Of a stretch of 64,000 nt of DNA, positions 20,713 through 60,097 are shown piece by piece (position 1 is the first letter of the stretch; each line of letters starts with the position of its first letter). The stretch is from Blasia pusilla (Eukaryota): positions 6,510,001-6,574,000 of the forward strand of contig CM114271.1 of assembly GCA_050084515.1 (NCBI GenBank). The letters are read 5' to 3'. The notes under the pieces were generated by a model. The model saw only the letters and a list, made by a program, of their open reading frames with translations, made no database searches and was not told the origin of the DNA. Both the position numbers and the translations under genes were made by a program.

Positions 20713-23210
20713 TTGACACATAGCATGGCAGCCGACCCATATAACGCAAAGTTAGATGTTCTCCAGGACATCCAATACTCTCTCCTAGTAAGAAAGAGGC
20801 CTTCCTATGACAATTTCCACAATGGAAACATTTTTCTCAGAGAGGCAGCCCATTGCAAGGAACATTTCTTCAATGACAATAACGATATTTCACTAGATAG
20901 TAGACTAACTATTGAAACTAGTATTTTTCCATTTTTATTCCCTTACCTACGAGGATATTTCACTAGAAAAACAACGTTTGCTGAGTATATATGTGCCCGA
21001 ATACAACAACTATTTATAGTTTTCACTCTTTATAAGCCATATATTCTTGTTATGCACCAATTAAGACAAGCTATTGCACTGGCTGCCTCTAGCTGTGTGT
21101 GCATATTGAGCAGAGAGCTAGACCTACTTAAAAAAAACATCTTGACTTGGCCAAAGAGCAATTGTATACTCGTCTATCCAAATATAGTTTCACCTCACAA
21201 ATTCCAGGAAGTCCTTCTTGGCAGAGGCGACACCTTCATGACCTTAAGGCAATGGTAAAAAAATGGGGGATGCTCAATTTTTTCCTTACCCTTACTTCAG
21301 ATGAAGTATCCAACAATAGATGGCCAAAAATTGATGATATAGAGTCCATTGCTAAAAAAATTAATCCTACCTTTACATGGAGAGATGCTCATATGGAATA
21401 TGCTGTTCTATTTCATACTCGTCTTAAGATATTTCTTCGTTACTATATTCTTGATGGGCCTCAAATTCTTGGTCGTGTCCAAAACTATCTTATAAGGTAC
21501 GAGCTTCAGAATAGAGGTAGCATTCACGCCCACATTATTTTGTGGGTCCATACCGCAGATGTAGATCAAACCACAAATGAAATCTCTTCTTATATTCCTT
21601 CAGTACATTCTATAACTCCACCTAATCAAGTTCGTTCTAATGAACTATCAATCCTCCACCACTATGTTGAAACCAAACAGATTCACAAGTGACGGGTATC
21701 AACATCATTGGAAGGACGGCAAACCACCCACCCTATTGCCCGATTAGATTTCCTTTCTTACATACCTATCATCTAAATGCATGTAGACCCAATTACCTTG
21801 AGATGGAACTATTACAGATCTGGACACCATCACATAAACGTTATACCCTACCATCCCACTGTTCTTTTACTTTGGAGAGCCCATATGAACCTATAGCGTG
21901 TAACAAACGTCCAATGGTCTCTTTACTTTCTGAAGTATGCACTCAAATTTGTTTGAATGTAACTACATGTGCAAGACAACTTGGACTCGATGGCCTAGAT
22001 GAGGTGAGACTCAAACTCGTGTCGGGATTAATATTAAACAAGTCGGTATCCTCAATTGAAGTTTCCTTAACAGTTGTGAAAATACCTATAATACAAAGGT
22101 CTCAGGGTGTCACTTATATTGATTCTATTCCACCATGTCGTCAAACAGCACTTTACAAAAACTTGACGATTCTCTGTATCCACCCGCCATATTGTATTGT
22201 CATTGATGGGAGTGTCTTTCTTAGCTAACCTTCATTTAGTTCTGGATAACACACGAGGAACTTAGGGTTGAATAAAAAATTGGTAACAACATTATTGCCG
22301 CAAACTATGTTGGCAACTTTGTGTACTATTAGCGGCTAGTGACCTTTAATCCTTTTTCAGGAAAGTTAATAATCGTTGTTGGTGATCTCTGTCAAGTGCC
22401 ACCAATGTGCCGTCATAACTCTGCCAGCTTTTGCATGTTATGTCATATTTCATCATCTCCATTCTTTCCTACACTCCCCAAGTACAACCTCACTATAGGG
22501 TTGAGACACAACTCTGATCCCCCATTTATGCATTTCCTCTGTAATGTCAGAGCAACTCTACCTACCCAAACTGATGTAGATCAATGTCTTGGCAATTGTT
22601 TTGTTGATGGAAACTCTACTACTGACTTCCTCGATGAACATAGACAAAAAATCTATTCTCACCGCTGCAACGTACAACTTTTCAATCTCATTGCAATTAG
22701 AAGATTATTTGGTGATGCTGACATGATTCCTGTCACAGTCATATCAAATGCACCTGCAGATCCACAATTTTAGAAATGGATTCATGGTCAAGAATTCCAT
22801 CAGCTCTAGTTTATTGCAATCAAATGCAAGGTCATGCTCACTAGCAATATCGACATATCCATACAGGCAGTCAATGGGGCATTTGCGTCTGTTGTAAACT
22901 GTGTATTTGTTTCCAATCAAATGAAAATAATAATTGCAAGGTTGCAGTCCAACAGCAGAGTTATCCCCATATCAAGAATGAACTTCTCTACTCTCTGACA
23001 TGGGCCCGACCAAAAATATAAAAAAACTTTCCCCCTCATTCTTACTTATGCAATGACGGCTCACAAAAGTCAAGGCATGAAAATAGATAGAAAATGCCTT
23101 CTTGTTATAAAAACAATATTTGTTCCTCGTCTTGTTTAAGTAATGCTCTCTAGGGTGAAGCCAAGGAAGAACCTACGAATCCTTGGATCAATTTTCCCAT
23201 TGGACTTACG
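20713..23210 (+). pseudogene. Helitron RepHel (HUH Rep + PIF1-type helicase), fragmented
   Basis: Rep motifs: IFPFLFPYLRG, PGSPSW..DLKAMVKKWGMLNFFLTLT, HUH motif YELQNRGSIHAHIILW (~21500-21545), PYHPTVLLLWRAHMN..YFLKYALK (~21845-21950). Helicase motifs: PFSGKLIIVVGDLCQVPP, LRHNSDP, VNGA, FPLILTYAMTAHKSQG, MLSRVK. No Walker A seen, probably deleted. Confidence 0.92.
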
Positions 23211-26200: not shown

Positions 26201-28215
26201 TAAGCCTCCCAGCCTCTTCGAACACACACCATCAAGGCTTGCACACAATTTGGATTGTCTTAATCAAACCACGATGCTCAGTCACAAAAATGTAAAGCCA
26301 ACTTAATATTCATGGAATGGCGGGAAAAACTAACATTCATGCACTATACGCATTGGTGCTCGATCTCTTTTGAATTCTTCTCTACCGATTCTAGCACAAC
26401 TAAGTTCACACACTATTGCAAGTTGTCTTATACATTGCATCCCCTCATTTTTATTGTCAACTTCATTATAGTAAGCTTTGTTCAACTTCTTCTCAACTCC
26501 ATTGGTACATCTCAGCCCATCGGCTTATTTTTTACTTCCTATTTTCGCACTACTCTACTATCACAACTACTTTTAGCTAGACGCATATCTTCACGTATTT
26601 ACATGTTACAGGTTCACTTGCGCTTACGCGATAGTGAATTTTTGGTTCCCACTTTTCACCGCACAACTCGCAACATGTTCACAACTTGGCAACAACTTTT
26701 CGGGGCTGCATTCTTGTTGAGTGTCTCTTCCCCCTCTCTTATTGGAAATTTAAAAATATTTTAAAAAGACCTTTAGAAAATCCTTTCTTTAGTAAAAAAA
26801 TTGTTTTTGTTGATTTTTTTTGAAATTCATGAAGTCCTCTCTTATTGAAAATTTTATACCTTTCTCCTTTCCCATCCCCTATTTTAAATCTATCCCTTAT
26901 TTTTGCTTCCCTTGCCTATTGAAATTTAAATAGCAAAAAATAGATCCACACAAGGAAACATTCTTTTATGAAAATTTGTCACCATCTTTTTCTTCCTCCC
27001 AAGTTTAAAATTACTTGTATCTACTATTTTTTTTAATCACTTGAATGAAATTTAATGTAAATTTTTTATAAAAAATATTATGATTGGATCAATCAAGAAG
27101 ATACATTTCAAGCCTTTTTCTATGTATAAAAAAATGAAACTTGTCCTAGAAGCGCAAACATCCTTATTAGAATAAATGTATCTTTACTTTTCAAAACTTT
27201 CATAGCTTTTCACAAGTCACTCCAGCATGAAAAAAATCTCACAAAGTTCTTAAAAACTAGTGTATCAAGGATAATCCAATTACTTACGTATACAAGATGT
27301 TCCTTACTTATAAATTGTGGTTGCAATCCGTAAAAGAAGAAACAAGGAACCTTTTAATTTTTTTTCAACAAAAACATAAATAATTTGAATTATACTATAT
27401 ATTTGAAGCTTTTCCCATGTTTTAGTTTCCATCATTGTCGCCAAGGCACCAAAGATCCAGATAAATGCACAAGCAAAAATCTTGCAATGGGCTTGGAGTC
27501 GTCCAAACTATAACTAAGGTTGAGGACCAGATAGAACGGCCTAAGAGAAATTCTTTAGATAAAGGGAGGGATGGATTTCTCTAGAATTATATCTAAGGGC
27601 AAAGATCTCCAAGGATATTTTGAACCTAAAATCCACCTAGGAAACCATGTGGGTTGAACCAAAGATACAAGATGGATTAAGAGGTTGCCTTTACGGTTTT
27701 GACGCAATGCAAAGTCCATATAGTTCTTAGATATTAACCTTAGATGTTAACATATGACTCAAATATTGAGTTGTACTTAAGACTTGTTTGAGTTCCCTTG
27801 GGTATTTCCCCTAGACATGTGAGCATCCTTTTAGGTCCCTTAATAATGAATGAAGTTTGTCTCAAGTCTTGAATGACTTACATGTGTGGGAGGGATGAGG
27901 AGTTAAGTCTAGATTTGATTCCTTCGGGATTTGTTGAGCTTGAAGGTTGACTTCACACCTAGACTGAAGAGATGCAAATCTGGTTGACCTAAAATGTATC
28001 ATGTATGAGTGTTTGGATGTAAATTAGTAAGGAGAACATGAAATTGAATGCAAGCTTCCGCGACACACAAGATTGACATTGAAGGAGATAGATGCACAAC
28101 ACATGGTATGAGAGCTAATCCTTGATAAGCGTGGACTCGGGTTATAGGAGGTGATTAGGCGCTTAGGAGATGTCATGGGCATACATATTGCTACACAATA
28201 CATATTGCTGGTCAC

Positions 28216-28582
28216 TGTTATGACCATACGGATTATGTCGTAGAGTATAGTGTGCTAGTAGAGGCCATTCCTTATGTAGGACCGTAGTGGCTTGATAGAG
28301 ATGCGGTTCCATATATAGGGTTGGGGGTTACTCAGTTGGGGGTGAGTCTCACAGAAGGGCCCGCTCTTAGGTTGGAGGATATAAGGTGGAGTGCACTCAA
28401 AGAACAGTCAGTTTTTTGAGTTGAGCCTGTTGCGTTGGGAGTTAGCCTTGGTATGAGTAGAGCTCTTGGCTATGGTGTTTCCCGCAAGCTTCGACCTAGA
28501 TTCTCCCATCGTGGAGTGGGTTTGGCTCGATTGTATGTGATTGTAAACGTGTTTTATGATAGTAGGTCTTTCACGGATTTCA
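28216..28582 (+). repeat. Terminal repeat A1 (367 bp)
   Basis: About 95% identical by eye to 37509-37876; homology stops after GGATTTCA. Confidence 0.95.
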
Positions 28583-30289
28583 CTCAAAGAACTGGAGTAG
28601 ATCGATGGTAGCTTCGATTGTAGATCAGTAGGATCTGGTTAGGGCTGATTGTGTACTCGGCCGTGGATGTTTGCGGCTTGTTGCCTATGTTGGAGGTGTG
28701 AATCAAGTGCGTAGTTGGTTGGGAAAGAAGCGCCTTGCTGAGAGCTTTCCAACGTGCTGTAGATCGCCGGATTTCGTCAAGGGAGTTGGAAGTTATCAAG
28801 CATTGAAGATTCTGGTTCGTGTTCGACAGTTTTCTGATGTGGAGAGCTTGGAGTGCGGAAGCTCTGTTGAAGTTCATCCAGATCGGGTGAGAGGTTCCTA
28901 TTGCTACTTGTATTGTGATCTCATGTGAAGCTATCTGCTCGAGTGCGTGGAGCGTTGCGGATTTCTGCGTGCATGAAATTTGGCGGAAGCGCTGTCGGAT
29001 TTGCGGTTCTAGAGGTGTGTGGACAGCAAGTTTGTCTGATTTTTAGCTCGGAGTACGGAGCTTGGATGTAGCTGAGTTTTGGTGGGGAGATAGCTATGGT
29101 GGTCAATTAAATTCTGATTGAAACAGATTTGATTTCGGTCACGTATTTGTGAAGTAATTTCTGATCGAAATTTCGCGGACTAGCTCAAGGTCTGGCTATG
29201 GTGGACAGCGGATCGGAGGGGTGGTTGGTTGGTCACTCGTTCATTTTTGGAGACGCCTATCCCGTTGGGGGCGCCCTGATTGGACCTCTCTCCATAGCGA
29301 AGCATGGCGAACGGGGCGATAGGGGCATGTCTCGAGCATTTGAGGCTTCGAGGCAACTCGTGGTAGCTCGGGGCGAGTGGGCGTGAGAGGCGGAGTAAGG
29401 AGCAAGGAGCAAGGAGCAAGCAAGCAAGCTTGCTTGCTTGGGCATGAGGCAATTTTTGCAGGATTTGGGATTTGAGTTTTGCATAACTGGTCACCCATCT
29501 TTGGGCTATTCTGCCTGGAGGACGCTTAATAGCTGAGTTCTTAACTATGCCGGTGTCTGCATGTTGTAGCTCATTTGGTCTTTGTTCGGAGATGTGTTAG
29601 GCGCTTTATGCATCTCAGTTTTTGGTTGATGTACCTCTAGCGCATAGTACGGTGTAGCCTCTCCATAGGTGATATTTTCAGGTGTCTTTGCGAGTTCGAC
29701 TAGCACGCGTCATCGACCATGGCGGAGTAGCTATTGCGTTAGAATTGTGTGGTGGGTTTTGTGGATTCAGAGGGCAACACGTTTGGTGGATTGTGTTACC
29801 TTGATTTCCATTTGCGACTGGAGGGTTGTCGTTGGATTTCTTGTGTTTGGATCCCCTCCATCGTGCTTCTTGCTTGCGCGCCCATTGTTAGGGTTGACGC
29901 TGATTTCCATAGTAGTGTTACTCCTGTGTGCTACTGATAGTGAGGCTGGAGTGATGACCAGTAGACCGTGGGAGGCTTCTTGTGGTGATGAGAGGTTAGG
30001 TTGCCTACACCCATAGCTAGTAGAGCTACAATAGTAGAGCGACATCGACGTCACTTGGATAATTTGGTGGTGGTGCGGCATCGGCGTTGGTCATCACGGA
30101 GCTGTCGGGTGGTCTGGTTGGGGACCGTGGTGCGGACAGTGGTGGTTTCACAAGGAGTGGATTTAGGTATCGGCTACCTTTTCCACTTCCGACGGTTGAT
30201 GAAGAGGAGGACGAGGGTGTTCCAAACACCGAGTCTTCTACGTTGTTATCGAGTGTTGCAGCTCCATTGAGTTGGGACATGGACGGTGG

Positions 30290-31470
30290 ATATGGGGCCA
30301 TGAAGGGCCCACGACGATACTGGGTGCAAAGTGGGTACCATTGAGTTGGAGGACTTCATGCGGGAGTTTGATACGTGGTGTGATATGCGGATGTTGCGGA
30401 ACGCACGTTGTTTACACCCTTCTTGGCTTGGAAGGGGTTGTTTCAGCACTTGGAAGGACCACCCATAGATGATTACCATGAGTTTAGGAAGGACCATGTT
30501 GCTGAGATTGAGGCATGGAGACAATATTGGTCTCCAGGCTATGTGTCTATCACCCATGGTGGTATTGGTAGTAGTGCTCCTACTATGCCGGCCCCCCAAC
30601 GCTGAGTGGTATGCAGTCTGAGCCGGAGTGGGGGTACCAAAGTGGAGGTACTAGTGGGGGTACTAGTGGAGGTACTAGTGCCCCACCATCGTTTAGCCTT
30701 GATTCTGAGAGTTCTTCAAGAGGTTGAAGAAGAACTATCAAGGAGTGAAGACGGAGAAGTTGAGGAATCTTAAGAACTTTGAGCGAAAGACTGGTGAGAG
30801 TCTTCGTGAGGCATACACACGTATGTGACGCTTGATTTCAGTTACCCAGGGTGTGATTGAGGATCAGGCAGTCCAGTTTTGGTATGGGATCTTGGACAGA
30901 GATTTGCGCCGTAGGGTACGTGATGCTACTCTTATGAGTGATGATTCACCCACATTGACCCATGTGTTTGCTCTATCTGAGAAGATTGAGCTTAACATGG
31001 TGAAGGAGAGAGTGGTGACATCCGCATTCAGTAGGGATACAACTACTACTTCTCGTGTTCAGCCGCCCACCTCACAGTCTCATAGTAGTGGTGGTGGTAG
31101 TAGTAGTGGGAGTCGTGGGGGGTACACGTGACCTCAGTCAAGTCCTAGAGGGACATTTGTGCAGAGACCATTGCCTTCATTTGCTGCCCAGCAAGCAGGG
31201 CGATCATGTTGGACATGTGGAGGTGATCATGTTAGGAAGTTTTGTCCCCAAGAGGATGGGAGACGGACTTTGGAGGATGGGCCTCGGTCGGCCCCAACTC
31301 GGTGTGATCATTGCGGGAGATTAGGTCATCCTCGAGAGCGTTGCTTTGATCTTCATCCGAGTTGAGATCAGGCCGTGGCCGTGGTGGAGTAGCTCCGAGA
31401 GGCCGAGGTGGTAGAGGTGGTAGGGGTGGTAGAGGTGGACCGGTGGTTGGAGAGCCTACGGTGGCTACCC
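30290..31470 (+). pseudogene. gag remnant with two zinc knuckles and an RGG tract
   Basis: LEDFMREFDTWCD, FERKTGESLREAY, CWTCGGDHVRKFC (~31207), CDHCGRLGHPRERC (~31303), GRGGRGGRGGRGG (~31400-31440). Confidence 0.8.
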
Positions 31471-32194
31471 CTACCACTCGACAAGTCGACTATGGTTGCC
31501 GGGATTGAGCAATTGGAGCGAGTTGGCTACTATGTTTGGTATCCAAAGATAGATCAGTTTGGGAGCAGGGGCTTCCACCTCTTATGGAGGGGATGATCTC
31601 TCTTATATGGCGAGTGCAAAGACAGGTTGAGGCATCAGTGCGATTCGAGAGGAGCCACTCGATCGTCGAGCCACGTGGTGCTCTATCAGAGTTGGACCCC
31701 TGCAGAGGGGTGAGGGGAGGCGAGGCTAGGCTTCCCAATCATTCTTGTTGGTGCTTAGGACTCCATCCATGGTTCCCTCGCAGCCTATTGAGCCGCTTGT
31801 GGGGGACCGAGGCATCTACATCGCGTGTAGTAGACACAGATGCGACATCAATGTAGTATTGCGGATGGCAACTTCGGTGTTGGGATCCCCATTATTTTCG
31901 GCCACGAGGCGATGGCTTTAGGAGTTGACTTAGCTCTGTATTTGATTAGTAGCCACGTTGTGAACGTGGGGTGTTTCTTGCTACACGTGTTGAGGTGGAT
32001 GAGGGTGTTGCGGTGGAGCGACCCTCTATGTCGAGTAGCATTGAGTACAAGTGCTACTTAGCGGCAAAGCGGGCGAAGATGGATGCATTACCGGCCCGGC
32101 CACCATTGATCGTGAGAGGCTTACACTGGTGTATGTATGTTGGACAACCGGAGTGGGATCTTCCGATTGGTGAGTCCCGGGGCAGTGTATAGAC

Positions 32195-32530
32195 CGGATA
32201 GAGTCTTGTTAGACTCGGTGCCCAACCTTGATGTTGGGAAAGGCGGCATGTATTGGTTTGGGTATTCGGAGGTCAGAGCTTGAGCCTTGCCCATTCCAGA
32301 TTCAAACATCACTTGGAGGAGCCAATGATAGGTCTCAATTCATGACACGGGAAAAGTTTTATGTACAATTGAGACCAGATCATGCGACTGATAGCTCTCG
32401 GTTGGGAGTATCTGCGGTAGTCACATCAGCCGAGTCGTATGATGTACTAGTTGGAGGAGCAGTATTGTACCCGATGGGTTTTCAGATGGATTCTTTGGTG
32501 AGACAAAGATCTTATAGACCAGGTTGGCAG
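32195..32530 (+). pseudogene. Aspartic protease remnant
   Basis: RVLLDS(G)AQPLMLGK across a frameshift at ~32218; YDVLVGGAVL closing motif. Confidence 0.7.
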
Positions 32531-32929
32531 TCCGGGGATGGACGTATGAGCCAAGTTCCTGTGAGATTTATTTCTGGGGCTCGACCAGGAGGGTCTTCCC
32601 CAAGAGTGTTAGCATCTGTGGCTGGTTTTAGTGGAGTAGTCACTTGGCCAGGAGACTTTTTGGAGGGTAATGTTTCTGCTATGGATTCTCCTGCCCATGA
32701 GGAGGTAGAGGAGGTCCCTATTTTTGCAGCAAATGGCATCCTCATCGTTGGATGTGCCACTTTGAGTTCAGCGGTGCACTACGGCAGAGGCGATTGCCTA
32801 GTGCAGAGGCTTGGTGTGAGGTGTTATACCTCACGAGGAAGAGGAGGCCCCACGGCGGACTCCTACTTCTGGCCTAGTTGGGTTATCCCCTTTGGATACT
32901 ACACCCATTGTATGGCAGTATCCGCCGGA

Positions 32930-33885
32930 GGGCATTTGTGTGTTAGATCTCTTTGGTGGGATTAGCACTGGTTTGGCTGCAGTGTTGCAGGCCGGTATTC
33001 TTGTGCGGAGATACGTGTATGTGGAGCGAGATGAGACGGCCCAGAGAGTCTCATCCCGACATATTGGTCAGTTGATGCGGAGATATCCTGAGTTGTTGCC
33101 GCCATCAGCTATTCGTGGGTACTAGCGTGCTTTACCATCACACATTGCATTGTTGGGGGCGCAGGACCTTGAGAGAATTGGTCCTATGGATTTGGTGATT
33201 GCTGGATGGCCATGTCAGGGTCATACACGTGCTGGTCGTGGTGAGGGATTACATGACCCTAGGTCTCGATTTTTTTGGGAGATGTTACGGGTGTTACGAC
33301 ATCTTCACGTTCATCGCACACGTGCTCTAGCTTAGCTTATTCGAGAATGTTCCATTGTTGGGTGACACTCGGACCCGGATGATGGCGAGTGTTCATGAGG
33401 TGCGGTCTTGATTGGACCAGCGGTGTTGTTGGATGCAGCATGAGTTGGCTCAGCGTGCACATCGCCCACGCTTGTGGTGGACAAACTTGTTGCCTAGGGA
33501 GGTTCTACGTCGAGCATATGATGCAGTGCAGCGGGATCCTCGCCTTACAGTGGATAGTATCTTGGATATTGGGTGACTTTCTCAAGTGGTGAGGGTTATT
33601 GATCGATCACCCATGGCAGCTGTGAACCATGTGGGCCAGCCTAGGATGGCGCTACCCACATTTGTGAGTTTTCCTCGTCACATGCCCTCTGAGGAAGGTG
33701 GTCGGGGCTTGTATGGGATTCTCATGTGCGGCGGTTGGTGGAGCCTAACGCTGATGAGAGAGAGAGAGCGTGCGATGGGATTTGCTACTGGTGTGACAGC
33801 GGTTGCTTCTATTTCTGAGGCTTCACGACGTCATGTGTTGGGTCAGGCCATGGACCTGAATTGTTTGACTTGGATTTTGAGTCTT
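32930..33885 (+). pseudogene. DNMT3-like DNA (cytosine-5) methyltransferase domain inside pol
   Basis: Motif I VLDLFGGI (~32940-32963), II YVYVE, IV DLVIAGWPCQ (catalytic Cys ~33213), V GLHDPRSRFFWE, VI LFENV (~33337-33351), VIII LLDAA..AHRPRLWWTNL (~33457), IX ERERAMGF..GVT, X SRRHVLGQAMDL. Unpermuted I-X order; stops and frameshifts present. Confidence 0.93.
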
Positions 33886-34239
33886 GGTATGGCCGAGCAG
33901 CGTCGACTTCGGACTATGTCTGTGGGTCTTCCACGCCTTGTAATGAGCTCGATGGCTAGGGGACAGTAGAGGCATCGGTCGGGGTGAGGAGAGTAGTATT
34001 TTGCATCCTTGGAGTAAATGGGATGTAATGGCTGGGCATGTGGAGTTGGTTGCTCATGCTAGTGGAGGAGTTATTTGCTCAGATGATGGTGTAGCTAAGG
34101 GTGTACCATCTTGTGAGGGGGTTGCGTAGCAGCCAATGGCATCGTCCTCTCCCTCTAGTGTGCCAGTGGAGGAGACTTGGGAGCCATTACTTGGGCCCAA
34201 GCTACGGCGGTGAGAAACGACGCTGACAAAGTTCCTACG

Positions 34240-35590
34240 TGCTTATAGGATTTGTTTTGCCTTTAGCATGAAGGAGTTGGGTTCTCTGGTTGGACCCGAT
34301 ATCTGATTGATTTGGCTAGTGATACGCCAATCTTCCGTCGTCCCCTACCGATATAGTGATATGGAGAGGGACTTGATTGAGTAGGACGTTGGACCTTTTG
34401 GAGGCTGGATTAGTGGAGTTGTCGCATGGAGAGTATGCATCGCCCACTTTGTCATGCTGCTAAAAAGGATATGCATGGCAACTACACGGATAGGCGGATG
34501 TGTGGAGATTACCGCCCTATCAATCGGAAAACCAAGGTCGATAGGTATGCCATGCCTACACCGAGGAGATCTTTGATGTGGTGGGACAGCAAAGATTTTC
34601 AGATTTTTGGATCTCGGCAGATACCATCAATTGCCGATTCGGGAGAGTGACAAGGCCAAGACAAAGATTAAGGGTGTCAACTCTTATGGCAAGGATTGTT
34701 TGTACCGGTGGAAATTCTTACCCTTTGGGTTGAAGAATGCACTGCCGAGTTTCAAAGAGTGATGATGGACAGGATCCTAGCGGGGTTGGATTTTGTTCGG
34801 TGTTACATTGATGATATCTTGGTGTTGATAACACGGTGGAGGAGCATCGATACATTTGCAGATGGTGTTTGAGCGGTTGAAAGCTCATGGTCTACGTTGC
34901 ATCCGAGGAAAGTGTAAGTTCTTCCATGAGGATGTTGAGTACTTGGGTCATGTGATCTATCCAGGTGGTTTGGGAGTTCGACAAGCAAAGGTGGAGGCTA
35001 TTGCACTTATTCGCGTCCGGTAGATGTGAGTAGAGTTCGAGCATTCATGGGATTGGCAAACTACTATTGGAGGTATGTGAAGGGATTTAGTGCTATGGCA
35101 AAGCCTTTGAACCAATTGCTGAAATCAGATCAAGAGTGGCACTTTGGGAGATGATCGGAGAGAGCTTTTGTGGAGCTTAAGGGCAGTTGGTGGCGGCGCC
35201 TATCTTGAGGAGACCTATCGAGGGCGCCCATTTCAGTTACACACTGATTGGAGTAGGTTGGGACTTGGAGCGGTGTTGACACAACATGATGATGAGCACA
35301 TGGAGTTTGTGGTGGCCTATGCAAGTCGTTCGAATAATGCAGCGGAGTCGCGCTATAGTTCATATGAGGAAGAGTGCTTGGCAGTAGTGTGGGCTGTGGC
35401 ACACTTTAGGTGTTACTTGTTTGGCACATTTACCCTTTTCATCGATCACCACCGCTCAAGTGGTTGATGGAGTCGGACAAGCTTACAGGGAAGCTTGCAC
35501 GGTGGGCTCTTATCTTACAGGAGTATGACTTCCATGTGGTACATAGACCTGGAGTTGCCAACCTTGATGCTGATGGGTTGAGTAGGAACC
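34240..35590 (+). pseudogene. Reverse transcriptase and RNase H
   Basis: RRMCGDYRPINRKT..DRYAMPTP, LPFGLKNA, CYIDDILV (34801-34824), [77 protein letters not shown]. Confidence 0.95.
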
Positions 35591-35979
35591 CATATACTAG
35601 CCAAGAGGATACAACTGGGGCTAGATGGCATGGCGAGGTTGATGAGGAGATGGTGCCAGGTTGGCATGCATCCGCCTTTTTATGTTGGTTAGGGGTGGAC
35701 TCTAGTATGGAGGACCACATGATATCTTACTCTAGTCAGAGGGTAGATGGCCAGCCTTCAGATCCTAAGGTTGGAGATGGTGGTACGGATCAGCGTGATA
35801 TTCATGATGATGCGTTGGTGTTGGAGTTCCTACGGACCAGTAGGGTGCCAGGCATAGTGAGTGCCAAGGAGCGAGACCGTGTTCTTCAACGTGCTAAGAG
35901 GTATCGATTGGAGGGAACACATATTCTCCGCGTGTGGGAGGATGGTAGAGTACGAGTAGTGCCACATTTGGCTCAGAGA

Positions 35980-37010
35980 GAGCGCATTGTGCGACATGCC
36001 CATGAGGAGTTGGGACATTTTGGGGTAAAGCGTACGTATAGCTTACTCCTTGGCCAATATTGGTGGCGTGGCATGCATACTCAGGTGCAGCAATTGGTGT
36101 CACGTTGTATGGTTTGTGACCAGGTAAGGGCATCATTTAATGCCCCTACACCACAATTACACCCCTTGCCTATTATGGGGTTGGGTTACCGTTGGAGTGT
36201 GGACTTTGCGGTACCGTTACCGTTGACTGTACGACATCATCGATATGTGTTGGTGATGGTGGAGCACTTCTCCAAGTGGATTGAGTTGGTGGCATTACCG
36301 GACAAGGCAAGTGAGGGAACGGCGTATGCGTTTCTGGATAGAGTGCTTAGTCATTTTGGTGCACCCGGTGAAGTCTTGACCGACCAGTCTGAGTTTTGGT
36401 GAGTTTGGTCTTGTGTGACAAGGCGTTGATTGATCATCGGACCACGTCTCGAGATCATCTTGAGGCGGATGGTTTGGTGGCGTGTGGTTCAGACGGTGAA
36501 GAGGGCATTGCGCAAGTATGGCCTCTGAAGGGCATCTTGGAGATTGGGATATTCGGTTGCCATGGTTAGCCATGGGGGTATAGGTTGATCGCCAAGCATC
36601 CTTGGCTTCCTTCTCACCTTATTTTTTACATTATCGGCCGAGATCCGGACTTGCCGAAAGCAATTGTCGGGAGTCTAGTGAGGTGGTGAACCTTGATGAC
36701 CGAGAGATGTGGATGAGGGTGTGTTCTCAACGGGCGGAGCTCTTTCGGAGAGTTATGCCAACAGCCTTTGAGAATCTTGCCATTGCTCAACACAGGGATA
36801 CGTTGCGGTATGCAACCATTCGGGGTGGAGGTTATCGACCATCGATTCGTAGGTTCCATGTGGGGGACTATGTCTATTTGCAGCAGATTGCCCCGACAAC
36901 GTTGGATGTGACGGCAGGCCACACTATTTTACGAGTGCGTGAGATGTTAGCTTTTGGAGTTCTCATGTTGGAGGGTCGTGATGGAGTTTTTTGGAAGGAC
37001 CATGTGCGTA
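35980..37010 (+). pseudogene. DDE integrase
   Basis: HHCC zinc finger (AHEELGHFG..YWWRGM..CMVC), WSVDFA, VEHFSKW, FGAPGEVLTDQ, RVVQTVKRAL, FSPYFL, FHVGDYVYL. Confidence 0.93.
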
Positions 37011-37084
37011 ATTGTGCGCCATGTCATCTTCCAAATGTGGATGGTACTGTTGACCCAAGCTTAGCCATGATACGTGCTAGCTTG

Positions 37085-37227
37085 AGGTGCATGTTGTGTG
37101 GGTCTCATGGTAACGCGGCCGTATGTTGGTGTGTGATCGGTGTTCTAGGGGTTGGCACATGATGTGTTTGACTCCACGTTTGGATGTTGTTCCTACTGGA
37201 AGGTGGATTTGTCCTCGATGTACTTAG
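37085..37227 (+). other. C-terminal PHD finger of the pol polyprotein
   Basis: RCMLCGSHGNAA/(frameshift)MLVCDRCSRGWHMMCLTPRLDVVPTGRWICPRCT-stop gives C4-H-C3 spacing with the typical W-x-C-P-x-C end. Confidence 0.9.
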
Positions 37228-37400
37228 GAGAGGTAGATGACTTGATCTTTGCATGATATGGATTACAAATGTGCGACTAACGATGGGGCAACCTAGCACC
37301 CGGCCTTCTGATTCGGGCACCCAAGAAGGTGTATAGCATGTAGTAGATGTATAGGGCTACCTGGGAGTTAGAGGGACCTAACCGCCTTGATTAGGGGCGA

Positions 37401-37982
37401 GTTGTGGTACACTTGCGTTTGTGGATACTCTCGTCTTTGTTATGTACGTATGTGAGTATGGTATGTCAGCGATGTATGGTGTATGACGATGTGGATTCGC
37501 ACGACAGCTGTCATGACCATACGGATTATGTCGTAGAGTATAGTGTGCTAGTAGAGGCCATTCCTTATGTAGGACCGTAGTGGCTTGGTAGAGATGCGGT
37601 TCCATACATAGGGTTGGGGGTTACTCAGTTGGGGTGAGTTTCACAAAGAGGGCCCGCTCTTAGGTTGGAGGATATAAGGTGGAGTGCACTCAAAGAACGA
37701 TCGATTCTTTGAGTTGAGCCTGTTGCGTTGGGAGTTAGCCTTGGTAGTGAGTAGAGCTCTTGGCTATGGTGTTTCCCGCAAGCTTCGACCTAGATTCTCC
37801 CATCGTGGAGTGGGTTTGGCTCGATTGTATGTGATTGTAAATGTGTTTTATGACAGTAGGTCTTTCACGGATTTCAGTTGTGGTACACTTGCATTTGTGG
37901 ATACTCTCGTCTATGTTATGTACGTATGTGAGTATGGTATGTCAGCGATGTATGTTGTATGACGATGTGGATTTGCACGACA
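37401..37982 (+). repeat. 3' split-repeat block B1(37401-37506)-gc-A2(37509-37876)-B2(37877-37982)
   Basis: B1 and B2 are 106-bp near-identical copies (GTTGTGGTACACTTGC...GCACGACA); A2 matches A1. Confidence 0.95.
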
Positions 37983-38943
37983 TCACATCCACACCACACC
38001 ACACAACACCGATCTTCCCGAACGCACGGGTAAATCCACACATATAAAAAAATGAACTCATGCATGTACGTCGAGATCACACAACAAAAGTAAACGGGAC
38101 ACTCGGCCTAAAACTCCACTCCTCAATCTACATTGGCATATTGAGCCTCGTCCACCCTATGCTATCAGGGAATCCGGACCCTAGCATCCTGATCCTATCT
38201 TACACAAGAACAAGAGAGGTGCTCCAACAACCCAACATGAGAGCAATGGCTCAGGAAAGCCATCCCTCTCCCATACATAGGTGTGGGAAGAGCCAAAATG
38301 CCCTTCCCCTAAAAATAGCAATCCTCCTAGAAACCTACGTGCACAGGTATGAGGGGCGGGTGACCTATTGAACAAGTCATCCGGATGTGAAAGACCCAAA
38401 CAAAAATTTCGTTAGAAACGATGATCGTGACACAACGGAACTATCCTCAACCCCATCCAACACCTCAAGACGAAGTTACACTCAAGACAGTCCACTGACT
38501 CTCTATGTCGTCGTCGCGATAGATCCCTACATATCGGCTACTCAGATGTGATAGAGAACACAAGGTTGTAATTGAGGTTTGGACACTCGGGGAGGGATGC
38601 AGGCGACAAATAAATAATTTAAACAAGCCAAGGCTTGAAGATGACACCATTGGATGGATCTTCACCAAAACGTCGAGTCCAATGCCAGAAACCAAGAGAG
38701 AAACCACTACCTAACTAGGAGCCAAAGAATTATACTTTAATATCCAACACACAATTTTTAGGCATGAGAATGTTATATATTTGAGAAATTCAAGCAAGCT
38801 TTCAACGCTAAATTCAAATGATCTGGGGCTCTATCTTGAAATGAAGGATCTCATGAATATCATGTGAGAATAAATGACCCAAAAAAATAAGTGAATGGTT
38901 GAGTTGGAGATGGATTGGGCATCCATTTCTATCAAGAAACTAA

Positions 38944-46644: not shown

Positions 46645-49600
46645 CTAAGAAGCTAAAGTCATGTCAGGGCAGAAGTTGTTTGAGGAATCACATCCCAGCA
46701 CATCTTGATATTTCCTGGAGATCGTGAAGTAGTCGTAAACTTGGCCATCACTGCTTTTCTTAAATTCAAGCAGGAGACTAGAATGATTGAAGGCTGTGAG
46801 CTTCGTAAATCCATAGTCCCTCTCCTTGACTAGTGACCAGCTTGTGTTTAAAGTTGTGAAGGAAGCCAAATGAGATCCTCCTCCTCCCACTACGAGATGT
46901 ATGGTTGCATTGAATTTGCCGGAGTAGTGATTTTGCTCTTGGCTTACACATATGTTCTGCCACAGCCAAACAACGATTGCATGCACGTCAGCACTTCGTA
47001 AATCCAATAACGGAACAATCGAGCGGCAAAAGTAGATTGATGTTGCTGCACGATGGATGGTTCATTTCCTTTCCTTCTATATACAATGTGCGGCATGCCT
47101 GAGAATAGAAGGATTCATCTGCTCACCTCATACACGGGACATGTCCGCTCGTAATGGTGAAGATGGCCATAGAAAGCAAGGTCAACTTTGTACTTTTGCC
47201 AAAGTACTTGTAGATCGTCTCTTCCCCAGGGTTCGGCGAAGGATCCTTCAGAAGCATATCTCGAACCAGAAGAGTACCCCAGCACCCGATGACTCATGAA
47301 TATCAGCCAGGGCTGTCTGTGCCTATCGACGCTTCTCATGCACTCCTCCAGAAACTTGTATTGTTCCGTCCCTTTGCGCCAGTCCTGTTCAGAGTCTGCA
47401 ACACAGAAGCGGAACATCCCCCAATCCGTTTGGTACCTACATCCGTCCCATCATCTTTCCAACGTCAGATATCATCCTGATTCGAGAAGCTCTGGTGCTT
47501 CTCCATTCATATGATTTTCTTTCTTTCTTTTCAGACATGATCCTGGGGCGGAACGACACTCGACTTTCAAGTAGGACGTCTTTCCAACATAAGCAGATTC
47601 CTAGAGCAAGTTCAATGTCGAGAGATGCTTCTGAAGCATTGGCATCAGTCAGGCGCAGGTAGTAAGAATTTACGACTGACCAGATCTTTCCAGCGTTCTT
47701 TGTAGGCATGTTGAATTCAACTTGTGCAGGTACACCACATTCGCCCCCAGAATCAGTCGTGTTGTAGAAACCTCCAGAGAGAGGCCAGCTCCGTTCATGG
47801 TTACCACTGATGCAAGAGTATTGGAAACAGATTGTTAAAGCTGGCAGATGTCTACAAGGATCTGACCCACGAGTGAATCATCCTACCACCTCGCTACACC
47901 AATGACCAATGTTTGCACCAGTGAACCATTCATCAAACCCAACACTTTTCCGGGACAAGACATGACTGAGTCACAACGTAAGAAACTGAGGATGGATACC
48001 TGGCAGTCATCAATGGCACACTAGAAGATATCTCTTCCACTTGCTCAATGAACTGATCCCATTGTGATACGTATCCATTTGAGTAACTCATGTCCCCGAT
48101 AAGGAACACAAGGTCGTAGTTGTCCACGTCTTCCACGAGCCTGTCGGTGGTGTTTAAGCATCCAGGCTGATAGTTAGCGTATTCATTGGACCCATCACGT
48201 TCTGCCTGGATGTGTACAATCAATAAAATTCATAATCATCAGCAACAATCCACATCCGTATGTTTCTGATGCTGACTCGTATTCGGCCCAAGCACTTCGT
48301 CTGGTGACAACGTATCATCGAGAAAACTTCCCTTCCAGCAACCAGAAGGTATGGTACCAAACTTAGCAGAGAGTCCGCCCAGTATAATCCATCTGTTTGG
48401 GCTCATGTTTGACATTGATGAAGGCCTCTTCTGCCATGTTCACGATGACAATCGTGTACTGGTTTATGAGATGGCGTGAGTTGCATGAAGTAGATCTGAA
48501 AGAAAGTGTAGGTGGCTACCTTGCCCATGTCACCAAAAATAATAACACGTTGCAACGAATCTTGGCCTGGAGAGGGTGCTGAATTGAAGAGGCCGGCCCT
48601 ACCCCATACTAAAGACCCGTCTTTCAGCCGATGGCCCAATTGGTAAACGTACCTGCCCAACGATCGATACCCTAGTGTCAGATTCAAAGCATCAGACTTC
48701 CAATACTCCACTCATTCTCTCTCTAGGATGATTAGCCAACGACCACTGATAAGGACCTTTTGGAGCAGCTGCACCACACATTCGTCTCTTTCGGGTGGGG
48801 TAAACACCGGAAGTTCTAGATGGGGTGGCCCAATGTAGAAAAAATGGTGACAAGATACAACGTTACCACACTTTCATGAATACTCGGAGATTTACTATGC
48901 AGGCTTCTTACATCTCCGTCCCCATGTTTATAGATGGTAGTTCAGGGATGCTTGACGAGTTGACGACGAACATCATTACCTTGTCAATTCCAGGTACGAT
49001 GCTAACAATAGACTAGCATTCTTCCAGGGCCCTGCCTTAAGTATCACCGATTTGATGGCAAGCAAGAACCAGATTCAAATTGGTAGGGATTAAAACTACA
49101 ACAGTTGACTCGGTAGAATTTCCTGGGGTGTAGTCTGCTCTGTTCAGTTCAGTTGTTACAAACTTTGCGAATGAAGTCCCATGATGCTTTTGGGTTCGGG
49201 TGGACAACAACTCACATCATTCATTCTTTCTAGCGGAATACGATGGGCGAAAGGGGAACAGGGATGCTAACGTGCAAAAGATAAGCCACCATCCGTCGAG
49301 AGAGATGGTTTTGACAATATTGCATGGCGGATACTGTGCTGGTCGACAAAAACTCCCACTTACTTCGTTTTGGGCCAGAGCTCCTTCAGGTAACTGGAGT
49401 GAATGTATCCAGGGTCCCGCCATCCGACCGTGCTTGCAGGAGGTCCTGCCAACAGAGAGCAAGCCATTTGGATCCAATCACTTCCAACATCTTGACTCTA
49501 GCCCGGCCAAATTTGTGATCCGACTCTAGCTCTCTGTCACAGATACTAATCCATCCTTTGCTTTTGCTTGAGATGCAACAATCGGTCCCGTTGAATCGTC

Positions 49601-53939: not shown

Positions 53940-55290
53940 TCAAAATAGCCGCCGAGATGGAAACTCGATCCAGAAATGATGATTATTGTCGCAATAGGCG
54001 CCACCATAATCGAAATAGCCGCCGTTGTAGATTATTCGTTTTCTGAGAGGTGATCCTACTCAGAATAGCCGGGAAAATATCCGCCGTTGAAGTGATTTTG
54101 ATTTCCTGAGATGTAAGCCTCCTCACAGTATAGCCGCCGAATTAGCTGCCGTGGTAGTTTTGTAGTTATCCTGAGAGGGTCGCCTTCCCAAAATAGCCTC
54201 CGAATTAGCCGCCGTTGTAGTATTATTGTTGTCTTGAGAGTTGAGCCTAGTCATAAGAGTGGTCGACTTAGCCGCATTTGTAATTGATTTCCTTTCTTAA
54301 GAGCTTAGCCTATTGAGAATAACCACCGAGATAGCCGCCGTTGTTGTTGTTTTGTTGTCATGAGAGGCGAGCCAACTCAGAATAGCCTCCAAATTAGCCG
54401 CCGTTGTAGTTTTTTTGTTCTCTTCAGAGGTGAGCCAACTCAGAATAGCCGCCAAATTACCCGCCGTTGTAGTTGTTTTGATCTTTTCAGAGGTGAGCTA
54501 ACTCAGATTTGTCGCCGAATTAGCCGCCGTTGTAGTTGTTTTGTTGTCTTCAGAGGTGAGCTAACTCAGAATAGTCACCGAATTAGCCACCGTTGTAGAT
54601 GTCTAACTTTCCCTAGAGGTGAGCCAACTCAGAATAGCCGCCGAATTAGCCGCCCTTGTAGTTGTTTTGGTTTCGGGAGAGATTGGGCTTCTCAGAATAA
54701 CCATCCAAATAGCCGCCGTTGTTGTCATTTTGTTTTCATGAGAGGCAAGCCAACTCAGAATAGCCACCAAATTAGCCGCCGTTGTAATTGTTCTTTTTCT
54801 CCTCAGAGGTGAGCTAACTCAGATTTGTCGCCGAATTAGCCGCCGTTGTAGTTGTTTTGTTCTCTTCAGAGGTGAGCTAACTCTGAATAGTCACTGAATT
54901 AGCCACCGTTGTAGATGTCTAACTTTCACTAGAGGTGAGCCAACTCAGAATAGCCGCCGAATTAGCCGTCATTGTAGGTGGTTTGGGTTTTGGGAGATAT
55001 TGGGCTATATCGACTAGCCTCCGAAATAGCCGCCGTTGTAGTAATTTTTTTCTCTTCAAAGGTGAGGCTACTTAGAGTATCCTCCGTTGTAGTTTTTGTA
55101 CTCGATAGATGAGCCTACTCAAAGCGGCGGTTGCCGTTGCGAGAAGAGGTGATAGTACTCGAGAATAGCCGCCTAAATAGCGACCATTGCGGTTGTTTTG
55201 TACTCGAAAAGGTCACCTACTACGAATAGCCGCCGTTGCAGTTGTCTTGTACTTCTCAGAGGTTAGCCTACTCACAGTAGCCGCCGTAGT
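53940..55290 (+). repeat. Tandem array, 63-bp unit with ~315-bp higher-order repeat
   Basis: Unit GAGGTGAGCCAACTCAGAATAGCCGCCGAATTAGCCGCCGTTGTAGTTGTTTTG..; variant GATTTGTCGCCG recurs 315 bp apart; decays toward both edges. Confidence 0.9.
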
Positions 55291-55397
55291 GGATATTTGG
55301 ATGACATAATGTAAGTCTTCATTTTTTGATTTGTATTGGCGTGGCGTAGTCATCGTATTTGTGAAAGTTAGATTCATTAACAACCCTGGGTCATCAT

Positions 55398-58391: not shown

Positions 58392-59059
58392 GCTTTACTC
58401 AGGAGTGGAAAGTTTATATTCCCAAGAGACTAGAGCAGATACTACTGAAGAACTTAATGTAAAGGGTAGTGTTGTATCAGGGGGAAATTTGGTGCAGTCT
58501 ACCATGGAGAATGTTTCCACTCCTATGGATCTTGGTAATAGCGCTTCTAATCGCATACCAAATAGTCTAGTATTTCCGAGTGTTTCTCTTGTTTATGGGA
58601 AGTCTGAATCGATGAAGAGTCGATGGTCGTGAGGAGCAAAAAATCTTGGCATATCCTTGGTAGAACTTGATACTGATTCCCAGTGGAATCCAGAGGAAGA
58701 AGCATTTCATATTAGCTTGGCAGAAGAAGCTGCGAAAGATTTTCAGATTGTAGAAAGAAATCTATAAACTCAGATGGAATTGTCATATGTAGCCCATTTT
58801 TTTCTTGGTGTGAAAAATTATGATATTTGTTCATGTTGGAATGCAAAATATGTTCTCAGTGACGTAATAAAGTTCACAAACCATAATGGACCAAACCCTT
58901 CCCGGTTCAAGAAGAAACAGGCTTGGAGTGACGCCTATTCTCCATGACTGCTAATCACACGCCGAGAACTAAATCACCAAACGTTATACCTCGCTCTTTC
59001 TGAGGCTTTTGTTTGTTTAACTCCCTTCCCTCCCTCTCCTACCTTCTCCACTCAAGCCC

Positions 59060-59749: not shown

Positions 59750-60097
59750 TGTCATGAACATACGGATTATGTCGTAGAGTATAGTGTGCTAGTAGAGGCC
59801 ATTCCTTATGTAGGACCGTAGTGGCTTGGTAGAGATGCGGTTTTATACATAGGGTTGGGGGTTACTCAGGTGGGGGTGACTTTCCTAGTAGGGCCCGCTC
59901 TTTGAGTTGAGCCTTGGCTATGGTGTTTCCCGCAAGCTTTGACCTAGATTCTCCCATCGTGGAGTGGGTTTGGCGCGATTGTATGTGATTCTATACGTGT
60001 TTGTGGTGTTTGTGGATACTCTCATCTATGTTATGTAGGTATGTGAGTATGGTATGTCAGCCATGTATGTTGTATGACGATGTGGATTCGCACGACA
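59750..60097 (+). mobile_element. Solo A+B terminal repeat of the DNMT-Gypsy family, with internal deletions
   Basis: Starts TGTCATGAACATACGGATTATGTCG and ends GATTCGCACGACA; colinear with 37509-37982; flanks CCTT / CCTC (4-bp TSD, one mismatch). Confidence 0.9.

Follow-up and report, generated by a model that had tools for sequence, protein, structure and literature searches.

A decayed Gypsy-type retroelement with a DNMT3-like cytosine methyltransferase domain in Blasia pusilla, and its relatives in liverworts and mosses

The window analysed here, a stretch of 64,000 nucleotides of Blasia pusilla (contig CM114271.1, positions 6,510,001 to 6,574,000), contains between its positions 28216 and 37993 a Ty3/Gypsy-type retroelement copy that is decayed and non-autonomous. 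Inside it, a cytosine methyltransferase (DNMT) domain resembling DNMT3 is found between protease and reverse transcriptase. Taken together, the reading that this is a decayed Gypsy-DNMT3 element, that its DNMT is an integral and selected part of the family, and that intact copies would use it for self-methylation, is one we hold to be quite likely. Retrotransposon-borne DNMTs have so far been known from dinoflagellates and from one charophyte (de Mendoza et al. 2018, PMC5890265). In the literature, we found no description of Gypsy-DNMT3 elements in land plants, and the earlier note on this DNA knew of none either; on Marchantia genes of the family, and on Gypsy-DNMT3, nothing was found beyond a 2026 preprint.

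Structure of the retroelement

The features recognised in the window, all on the + strand, are given below with the evidence for each.

28216 to 37993, + strand: whole retroelement, ∼9.8 kb, termini TG...CA (repeat pairs, reading of the terminal sequence)
28215 to 28582, + strand: repeat A1, 5′ member of the split direct repeats (96% identity over 370 nt to 37508-37876)
30132 to 31359, + strand: gag-like region, CCHC zinc knuckle at 31303-31344 (tblastn of P0214, P0013 and P0027, 60-65% identity; CCHC pattern search)
32228 to 32731, + strand: protease-like region (tblastn, 72% identity to P0214 residues 697-864)
32826 to 33948, + strand: DNMT3-like C5 cytosine methyltransferase domain, pseudogenised (PF00145, DNMT3A as best solved relative, P0214 alignment)
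34847 to 35455, + strand: reverse transcriptase (partial Pfam match) and RNase H (three-frame Pfam scan)
35971 to 36390, + strand: integrase, H2C2 zinc domain and start of the rve core (Integrase_H2C2 57 bits; rve 32.4 bits versus a cut-off of 32.6)
37114 to 37221, + strand: PHD finger, C-terminal end of the pol region (PF00628, 31.8 bits versus a cut-off of 24)
37400 to 37506, + strand: repeat B1 (103 of 107 bases identical to 37876-37982)
37508 to 37876, + strand: repeat A2 (comparison with A1)
37876 to 37993, + strand: repeat B2, reaching the 3′ terminus (comparison with B1)
59750 to 60097, + strand: separate A-B repeat fragment of the same family (91-95% identity to parts of A and B)

The domains of the element follow each other on a single strand in the order gag(CCHC)-PR-DNMT-RT-RNaseH-integrase-PHD. 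This includes the Ty3/Gypsy succession of RT, RNase H and integrase, with an integrase of the DDE type, as recognised by Pfam. In the three-frame Pfam scan of 34847-35455, RVT_1 was detected below its cut-off (E 1.7e-4), together with RT_RNaseH (78 bits) and RT_RNaseH_2 (75 bits); by tblastn, the RT start has a match to the C-terminus of P0027, from 34271. Pfam gave no match for the protease-like region in the window ORF 32213-32965 of this copy, and P0214, from residue 684, aligns with the Asp_protease region of P0188, a protein of Klebsormidium nitens. An element of DIRS order was ruled out, as Integrase_H2C2 and rve are present and no tyrosine recombinase was found in the three-frame Pfam scan.

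The repeats are laid out as A1 ... B1-A2-B2, i.e. split direct repeats in a DIRS-type arrangement, with A alone on the 5′ side, B-A-B on the 3′ side, and TG...CA at the termini. A TATA-like GGATATAAGG is read inside A1. One DNA contig joins 28215 to 37994, and the piece it omits starts with TG and finishes with CA. Three DNA joints spanning the element were considered as empty sites and rejected, because their shorter side consists of just 25-26 letters plus extra letters. No target-site duplication was recognised at the element ends, the flanks being different (GTCAC versus CCACA). The full A...B-A-B pattern was present in 2 of the 15 examined metagenome loci of at least 11 kb (L014 and L033), most loci being cut at one end.

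The PHD finger has as best solved relatives the PHD fingers of CHD4, PHF12, PHF21A and ATXR5. In chromoviruses, which belong to the Gypsy elements, a chromodomain follows the integrase; the window element shares with them a chromatin-reader module at this place, but the module is a PHD finger.

The methyltransferase domain of the window copy

Three-frame translation of the + strand gives, in order, the motifs I (DLFGGISTG), IV (GWPCQG), VI (LFENV), VIII (AHRPRLWWTNL), IX (ERERAMGF) and X (LGQAMD). They are numbered as the conserved motifs of C5 cytosine methyltransferases, among which I (FxGxG), IV (PCQ), VI (ENV) and VIII (RxR) have signatures. All six are readable inside 32930-33885, where the earlier note had located the domain. 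The domain is there, but its true span is wider (32826-33948) and it is broken, with 5 in-frame stops (33123, 33333, 33441, 33574 and 33690) and 5 frame changes. The window copy is dead, and no enzyme is made from it. As the note had also described, the domain is intronless, has the same orientation as pol, and lies between the protease-like region (32228-32731) upstream and RT/RNase H (34847-35455) downstream.

A search with PF00145, which had been suggested as a check, gave 28 bits for the N-terminal half (32820-33332, one stop being read as X), where the cut-off is 22. The same half had DNMT3A as its best solved relative (E 3e-7), matched 63 longer database proteins with E down to 9e-86, and produced 1713 matches at E≤1e-3 against 1.84 billion representatives. 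The C-terminal half alone had no significant Pfam or PDB match; by tblastn, it is 61-64% identical to homologues. Over the whole domain, 288 of the 373 residues aligned to P0214 are identical (77%). Judged by these searches, the match strength lies far above chance. The companion domains of animal DNMT3, PWWP and ADD, were not found by Pfam beside the DNMT domain, and the PHD finger is far downstream, after the integrase.

Relation to DNMT3 and to DRM

A profile built from 18 homologues was compared with solved structures. The best matches were DNMT3A (E 1.2e-24), DNMT3C (4.7e-22) and DNMT3B (8.6e-22), followed by tobacco DRM (1.1e-13), DRM2 (2.8e-10), HhaI (5e-7) and DNMT2 (about 1e-5), while DNMT1 was absent among the matches at E≤1e-3. 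Three colinear segments align the profile to DNMT3A. An AF2 model of the homologue P0003 was obtained (pLDDT 85.2, pTM 0.87), and Foldseek found DNMT3A as its best match (E 1.9e-19, target TM 0.83), the top matches being all DNMT3A, 3B or 3C. By profile and predicted fold, the domain is closest to DNMT3, in line with the first proposal; this assignment is a ranking against solved structures, the trees described below being unrooted and made of element-type domains only, without host DNMT3, CMT or MET1. Among the matches listed in three homology searches, no host DNMT3 sequence was present.

With the catalytic domain of mammalian DNMT3A, its best match by profile and fold, the domain also shares the motif order and the style of motifs IX and X. 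It differs by its low identity (∼22%), by having neither PWWP nor ADD, by being part of a retroelement polyprotein, and by tens of extra residues separating motif VIII from motif IX (368 residues in the model versus 285 in the target). Plant DRM enzymes are DNMT3-related too, and can be aligned with the query in its N-terminal half (query residues 35-160 with DRM residues 227-350). However, motifs I-IV of DRM are in the C-terminal half of the chain, whereas in the window domain they are N-terminal to VI-X. Since motifs I-IV precede VI-X, no permutation is seen, and the unpermuted order (I, IV, VI, VIII, IX, X) means that the domain does not have the DRM arrangement; the exclusion of DRM, which had been argued on this ground, is upheld.

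A family present in Klebsormidium and in bryophytes

Relatives of the element are encoded in 83 of 124 candidate metagenome stretches. Close relatives, with 64-80% identity, were found in Marchantia, Calypogeia, Riccia and Sphagnum; those in Closterium are more distant. The named matches are Marchantia polymorpha, Calypogeia fissa, Riccia sorocarpa, four Sphagnum species and Closterium. In public databases, the sequences of the family are entered as hypothetical proteins from Marchantia, Sphagnum, Calypogeia and Riccia. One natural ORF of 2327 aa, P0237, has the architecture CCHC-PR-DNMT-RT-RNaseH-IN. Pfam analysis of 33 long homologues detected PF00145 in 26, RT, RNase H or integrase in 15-16, and the PHD finger in 10; PF00145 scores were 40.1 bits for P0214 and 58.4 bits for K. 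nitens P0188.

P0188 (GAQ93235.1) has the architecture CCHC-Asp_protease-DNMT. It is colinear with P0214, the close relative of the window copy, over 593 residues of PR-linker-DNMT, with 30% identity (E 5e-59). The earlier note had mentioned the Klebsormidium elements, and a kinship with them is in this way borne out, the window being linked to P0188 through P0214, and P0188 being a candidate, not a confirmed, copy of the KnitGypsy-Dnmt3 element of de Mendoza et al. 2018. As far as sequence can tell, the family appears to be the one first described as KnitGypsy-Dnmt3 in K. nitens. According to a legend in de Mendoza et al. 2018 (PMC5890265), the published element has "repeats as in DIRS, domains as in Gypsy". 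It has in common with ours an unpermuted, intronless DNMT3-like domain inside a Gypsy-type polyprotein, split repeats of the DIRS kind with Gypsy domains, and a DNMT under purifying selection, with a Ka/Ks <0.2 in that paper (PMC5890265). Several differences are found: the paper places the acquisition "in the K. nitens lineage", whereas the family is seen here in liverworts and mosses; the paper has few copies in K. nitens, whereas the family is very abundant here; and a PHD finger follows the integrase here, but is absent from the main text of the paper (PMC5890265). The protein P0188 itself differs by its identity of ∼30-37% and by its long separate branch in the tree.

SymbioDIRS-Dnmt3 of Symbiodinium is another retrotransposon carrying a DNMT3-type domain, and the only case with de novo CG methylation shown, in yeast (PMC5890265). 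It is however a DIRS element, described as distantly related to LTR Gypsy elements, of a dinoflagellate host and independently acquired (PMC5890265), whereas the window element has a DDE integrase.

Trees of element-type DNMT domains were made with FastTree, plus a 40-row IQ-TREE quick search, and are unrooted. The window copy falls within a 15-row clade (SH-aLRT 100) which contains all the rows of the reduced tree that are named as bryophytes, namely 4 of Marchantia, 4 of Sphagnum and 1 of Calypogeia. From this position, it appears to nest inside the bryophyte clade of the family. A purple-acid-phosphatase exon of the window was assigned by a protein atlas to Streptophyta and no lower (score 0.92). 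The Gypsy-DNMT3 family extends into liverworts and mosses, and this land-plant member of the Gypsy-DNMT3 kind seems to be new.

The window copy is broken and non-functional, and its domain might be taken for a fragment of a host DNMT3 gene, passively captured by this copy alone or present in it by chance. Against this, the same domain occupies the same place in relatives from at least 4 bryophyte genera, from Closterium and from K. nitens, it is found in the 83 metagenome stretches, and the DNMT is conserved to a degree comparable to gag. Passive capture of host DNMT3 by one copy is refuted by the family-wide occurrence and by the colinearity of P0188 and P0214, and we give it practically no weight. 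The DNMT domain appears instead to be an integral, selected part of the family, neither a one-copy capture nor a host gene.

Selection on the DNMT domain

The catalytic residues are nearly invariant in the 33 long homologues. In 18 sequences of 18, the Cys and Gln of PCQ, the Glu of ENV, the H, W and N of motif VIII, and E, E, E and G of motif IX are all invariant. The comparison of copies by dN/dS, also proposed in the earlier note, gave for the DNMT 0.78 at dS<0.1 and 0.33 at dS 0.7-1.2 (n=59 pairs), for gag 0.84 and 0.26 over the same comparison, and for the window DNMT versus loci 0.22-0.46 among the 15 lowest-dS comparisons listed, all of these being Nei-Gojobori values. They are crude, the codons having been taken from tblastn alignments in which the copies are broken, and they approach saturation where dS is highest. 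We read the values of 0.6-0.8 at low divergence as decay after insertion; between diverged copies, the DNMT appears to be under purifying selection. The outcomes which had been named as fatal to the proposal (one-copy capture, no purifying selection, lost catalytic residues) were thus not those observed, the domain being family-wide, apparently selected, and with its residues kept.

A conserved domain could nevertheless have a function other than DNA methylation, either as a binding or adaptor module like the inert DNMT3L, or on RNA like DNMT2. In yeast, in the sole published assay, the KnitGypsy-Dnmt3 domain induced no methylation, and RNA methylation was raised by de Mendoza et al. for a LINE-borne DNMT (PMC5890265). 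The authors nevertheless regard the yeast result as inconclusive, because human DNMT3B failed there as well (PMC5890265). Moreover, an inert adaptor need not retain the motif IV Cys-Gln, the motif VI Glu and the motif VIII residues, and profile and fold are far nearer DNMT3A (E 1e-24) than DNMT2 (E about 1e-5). We regard a domain inactive on DNA as rather improbable, and favour a DNA methyltransferase.

Copy state, abundance and transcription

No intact copy was seen as DNA: 46 metagenome loci out of 46 covering at least 340 of the 373 DNMT codons have 1-11 stops, and just 25 of 80 metagenome loci have an ORF of at least 250 aa. The family is very abundant in the organism holding the window, as 240,348 DNA contigs align at ≥90% likeness. 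Raw RNA reads aligned as well (4344 and 4165), and in the DNMT bins their depth was 36-63 for the first mate on minus versus 0-1.2 on plus. Only 209 of the 4344 and 156 of the 4165 were ≥99% alike to the window copy, so that most of the RNA comes from sibling copies. We conclude that sibling copies are transcribed across the DNMT from one strand, probably in sense if the usual stranded-library chemistry is assumed.

Proposed mechanism and wider meaning

In intact copies, the protease would free the DNMT from the polyprotein, and the freed enzyme may methylate DNA de novo at the C5 of cytosine, its substrate being the cDNA of the element itself or a fresh insertion. The methylated copy could then bear a host-like methylation mark, or have its own expression limited. 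The PHD finger, on the integrase side, might direct the complex towards chromatin in which the tail of histone H3 is in a given state.

The enzyme could also be active in trans, on host chromatin or the integration target and not on its own cDNA, where it might mark the flanks or shape the methylome. This would fit with a PHD finger akin to histone H3 tail readers on the same polyprotein, as in 10 of the 33 long homologues, and with a family that is very abundant and transcribed, but the methylome of K. nitens looked plant-like despite its Gypsy-DNMT3 elements (PMC5890265). We consider action in trans unlikely, and prefer methylation of the element's own copies.

It is a rare reversal of the arms race when retrotransposons bear the very enzyme class with which their hosts silence them. 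If the family is widespread, abundant and transcribed in liverworts and mosses, the acquisition predates the Klebsormidium lineage, or has spread beyond it; the DNMT counts of bryophyte genomes then include transposon genes, and the question of how a transposon profits from a methyltransferase of its own acquires a laboratory model, the genetically tractable Marchantia. An active enzyme would mean that de novo methylation encoded by transposons adds to bryophyte methylation patterns, or mimics them. Tentatively, and with less than even confidence, we propose that Gypsy-DNMT3 is an old green-plant lineage which survived the move to land, and is high-copy and transcribed in bryophytes, with a DNMT3-type writer and a PHD-type reader. 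That the copies from liverworts, mosses and the window are so alike could also reflect horizontal spread among bryophytes.

By itself, the window copy is an ordinary dead insertion. The separate A-B repeat fragment at 59750-60097 is either a solo repeat or belongs to a truncated copy, as its 3′ end.

The DNMT domain and its element

Three-frame translation of 32700-34100 revealed methyltransferase motifs I, IV, VI, VIII, IX and X on the + strand, the same motifs and the same order as listed in the earlier note. A PF00145 search gave 28 bits (Pfam cut-off 22) for the N-terminal half (32820-33332, with X at the single stop). Its closest solved relative was DNMT3A (E 3.1e-7), followed by DNMT3B and 3C and next by DRMs and bacterial enzymes. 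Searched by itself against Pfam and PDB, the C-terminal half gave nothing significant. This weakness is explained by a homologue-guided map: reading the window domain requires five frame changes, and five stops are present (33123, 33333, 33441, 33574 and 33690, all TAG or TGA). We conclude that the retrotransposon-borne DNMT3-like domain is real and had been correctly read, and that the window copy is a pseudogene.

Pfam was scanned in three frames over 28500-37501, and the region upstream of the domain was mapped by tblastn with three homologous database proteins (P0214, a close relative of the window copy, P0013 and P0027).

28215-28582: repeat A1, 96% match to A2
30132-31359: gag, upstream of the DNMT domain (tblastn)
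31303-31344: CCHC knuckle, within the gag range (pattern)
32228-32731, +: protease-like stretch, upstream of the DNMT domain (tblastn, 72% identity)
32826-33948, +: DNMT domain (homologue-guided map, 288/373 residues identical to P0214)
34847-34957, +: RT, weak match (Pfam)
35225-35455, +: RNase H (Pfam)
35971-36132, +: integrase H2C2 (Pfam)
36187-36390, +: rve core (Pfam)
37114-37221, +: PHD finger, after the integrase (Pfam)
37400-37506: repeat B1, 107 nt, 103/107 identical to B2
37508-37876: repeat A2, 96% match to A1
37876-37982: repeat B2, 107 nt

The domain therefore lies on the strand of pol, between protease and RT, as first described. The repeats are ordered A1 ... B1-A2-B2, with B on both flanks of A2, and the element termini are TG...CA, the 3' one at 37993. 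The same arrangement was found in 2 of the 15 related metagenome loci examined (at least 11 kb, most loci being cut at one end), namely L014 (1676-2017, 10238-10805) and L033 (4741-5068, 13138-13703). A DDE integrase is present, and no tyrosine recombinase was detected in the three-frame Pfam scan of 28500-37501. Split repeats, a DDE integrase and TG...CA termini thus occur in one element, and the standard LTR scheme leaves the regeneration of such ends in reverse transcription unexplained. The family has a further A-B repeat fragment at 59750-60097, adjoining long tandem arrays (59053-59664 and 60098-60903).

Enzyme class and fold

A profile built from 18 aligned domain-length homologues was compared with solved structures. 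It ranked DNMT3A first (E 1.2e-24), followed by DNMT3C (4.7e-22), DNMT3B (8.6e-22), tobacco DRM (1.1e-13), DRM2 (2.8e-10), HhaI (5e-7) and DNMT2 (about 1e-5); no DNMT1 was matched at E<=1e-3. DNMT3A was matched in three colinear pieces and DRMs through their C-terminal half only, meaning that the DRM permutation is absent; the unpermuted order, and with it the exclusion of DRM, is upheld. The AlphaFold model of the homologue P0003 (pLDDT 85.2, pTM 0.87) had DNMT3A, 3B and 3C as top Foldseek matches (E 1.9e-19, target TM 0.83). As no host DNMT3, CMT or MET1 was among the listed homology-search matches, the putative DNMT3-like assignment rests on ranking against solved structures, not on a rooted tree.

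All 18 homologues share, without exception, the motif IV Cys-Gln, the motif VI Glu, three residues around motif VIII (His, Trp, Asn) and, in motif IX, three Glu and a Gly. The domain keeps all catalytic residues, with a predicted DNMT3A-like fold. The main rival explanation, a non-catalytic or RNA-directed role, is made less likely by this invariance.

Selection and decay of copies

Relatives were found in 83 of 124 candidate metagenome stretches, of which 80 were kept. Their presence there, in bryophytes, in Closterium and in Klebsormidium nitens excludes passive capture in one copy. An ORF of at least 250 aa remained in 25 of the 80 loci, and all 46 loci covering at least 340 of the 373 DNMT codons had 1-11 stops. 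By pairwise Nei-Gojobori on alignment-guided codons, a crude method near saturation in the top dS bin, dN/dS of the DNMT domain was 0.78 at dS<0.1 and 0.33 at dS 0.7-1.2 (59 pairs), with 0.71, 0.60 and 0.70 in the intermediate bins, and this low top-bin value points to purifying selection. The corresponding extremes were 0.84 and 0.26 for gag, 1.15 and 0.60 for the linker. When the window copy was compared with the loci, the 15 comparisons lowest in dS (0.68-0.84) had dN/dS of 0.22-0.46. Such a trend would be expected of a domain selected in active elements and decaying after insertion.

Relatives, host range and phylogeny

Scanning 1.84 billion representatives yielded 1713 hits at E<=1e-3 and 372 at E<=1e-10; 63 longer proteins were matched by the N-terminal half. 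The best matches (78-80% identical) are database entries without a name, clustered with proteins of Sphagnum jensenii and S. troendelagicum. Many Marchantia polymorpha proteins (60-76% identical) were found, along with Calypogeia fissa, S. fallax and S. tenellum, and Closterium at 42-45% (four strains named by look-up). Profile searches added Riccia sorocarpa and one Chromochloris zofingiensis protein. The K. nitens protein P0188 (GAQ93235.1), ordered CCHC - aspartyl protease - DNMT, is colinear with P0214 over 593 residues of protease, linker and DNMT (30% identity, E 5e-59).

Among the 33 homologues of at least 1000 aa, PF00145 was detected in 26, RT, RNase H and integrase domains in 15-16, and a PHD finger in 10. 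A PTM/DIR17-like Tudor domain occurs in two of them and a Dam (N6-adenine methyltransferase) domain in one, which recalls the dual-methylation 'EpiLTR' elements of a 2026 preprint (10.64898/2026.05.21.726589). Many divergent clusters (49-80% identical; P0039-P0055, P0214, P0366, P0013, P0027) end at ~1330 residues, shortly past the DNMT domain. ORF1 (gag-PR-DNMT) could have a conserved end here, RT-IN then lying in a second reading frame; contrary to this reading, P0027 continues into RT, and P0237 is one 2327-aa ORF (CCHC-PR-DNMT-RT-RNaseH-IN).

Two unrooted DNMT-domain trees (40-row IQ-TREE, 138-row FastTree) agreed. In the former, the window copy falls in a 15-row clade (SH-aLRT 100) with all nine named bryophyte rows (4 Marchantia, 4 Sphagnum, 1 Calypogeia), inside which it meets the Marchantia, Sphagnum and P0214 groups at an unresolved fork. 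Closterium is a separate clade, and a further clade includes the Chromochloris protein. K. nitens is a long branch, ~2.7-2.8 changes/site from its nearest rows, P0214 included. In both trees the Marchantia, Sphagnum and window domains are only about 0.45-0.5 changes/site apart, a liverwort-moss closeness that hints either at strong constraint or at horizontal spread.

Architecture differs in the Chromochloris-type clade, where DNMT lies between RNase H and integrase (P0171, P0245, P0267 and others), often accompanied by a G-patch and a PHD finger. One of these proteins is from C. zofingiensis. Over all fetched proteins, RT-DNMT-IN was counted 31 times, RT-DNMT 4, DNMT-RT-IN 8, DNMT-RT 11 and DNMT-IN 11. 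DNMT being found at two places (31 RT-DNMT-IN versus 8 DNMT-RT-IN), the domain either changed place or was gained repeatedly.

Abundance and transcription

Run X1, from an organism that is possibly the source, matches the element best (share 0.64); at a likeness of at least 90%, 240,348 of its DNA contigs align to it. Two 2026 RNA-seq runs of the same organism gave 4344 and 4165 reads on it, nearly all with the first mate on the minus strand, that is + strand RNA if the libraries follow the usual stranded chemistry. In the DNMT bins (32774-33796) depth was 36-63; it reached 185 in the integrase-PHD part and fell off at both element ends. Only 209 and 156 reads were at least 99% alike to the window copy, so most of the RNA derives from siblings of this copy. 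At one window stop (33440-33441), 62/65 and 39/39 minus-first-mate reads carried other letters. A variant without 35759-36755 (joint 35758-36756 with 9 extra letters) was seen in 16 and 31 reads, and a few reads join 30321 to 36837; both joints mark family members that carry deletions and are transcribed. The DNMT domain is a conserved, selected and transcribed part of the polyprotein.

Proposed role and comparison with known elements

The protease would free the DNMT from the polyprotein, and the enzyme would then methylate DNA cytosines de novo, on cDNA or a new insertion of the element itself. Alternatively, it may act in trans on host chromatin. The PHD finger may guide the complex on chromatin. 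Among solved structures it is closest to the PHD fingers of CHD4, PHF12, PHF21A and ATXR5, several of which bind unmodified H3K4. It may be a stand-in for the chromovirus chromodomain, or an echo of the DNMT3 ADD domain.

According to de Mendoza et al. 2018 (PMC5890265), KnitGypsy-Dnmt3, a K. nitens Gypsy element, has intronless, unpermuted Dnmt3-type domains in its Pol polyprotein, a repeat structure resembling DIRS elements and Ka/Ks <0.2, its acquisition being placed "in the K. nitens lineage". Of the enzymes assayed in yeast, those of Symbiodinium DIRS alone produced CG methylation; the K. nitens domain gave none, a result its authors call inconclusive (PMC5890265). The window element is a dead copy belonging to this already known kind, not a new kind. 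Retrotransposon DNMT3 in "streptophytes" is mentioned in PMC12344493 (2025, citing the 2018 paper) and in the 2026 preprint 10.64898/2026.05.21.726589. The earlier note knew of no land-plant description, and none was found in the literature searches or in passages of PMC11982613 and PMC6453930, though supplementary figures may show such sequences. New are the range (liverworts, mosses, Closterium, a related chlorophyte architecture), the abundance and transcription in the host, and the PHD companion.

Elsewhere in the window, exons of a purple-acid-phosphatase-like host gene were found (Metallophos_C 60 bits), exon 46645-47061 being plant-like with streptophyte nearest atlas clusters, which identifies the window's host as a streptophyte. 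The other features are:

243-980, -: unrelated RT (RVT_1, 102 bits)
21132-22773, +: Helitron-like ORF (Helitron_like_N, weak PIF1 match below cut-off)
46645-47877, -: purple-acid-phosphatase-like exons
54009-55085 and 61694-62522: long arrays of tandem repeats, units 71-88% identical
55365-58391, +: MULE transposase
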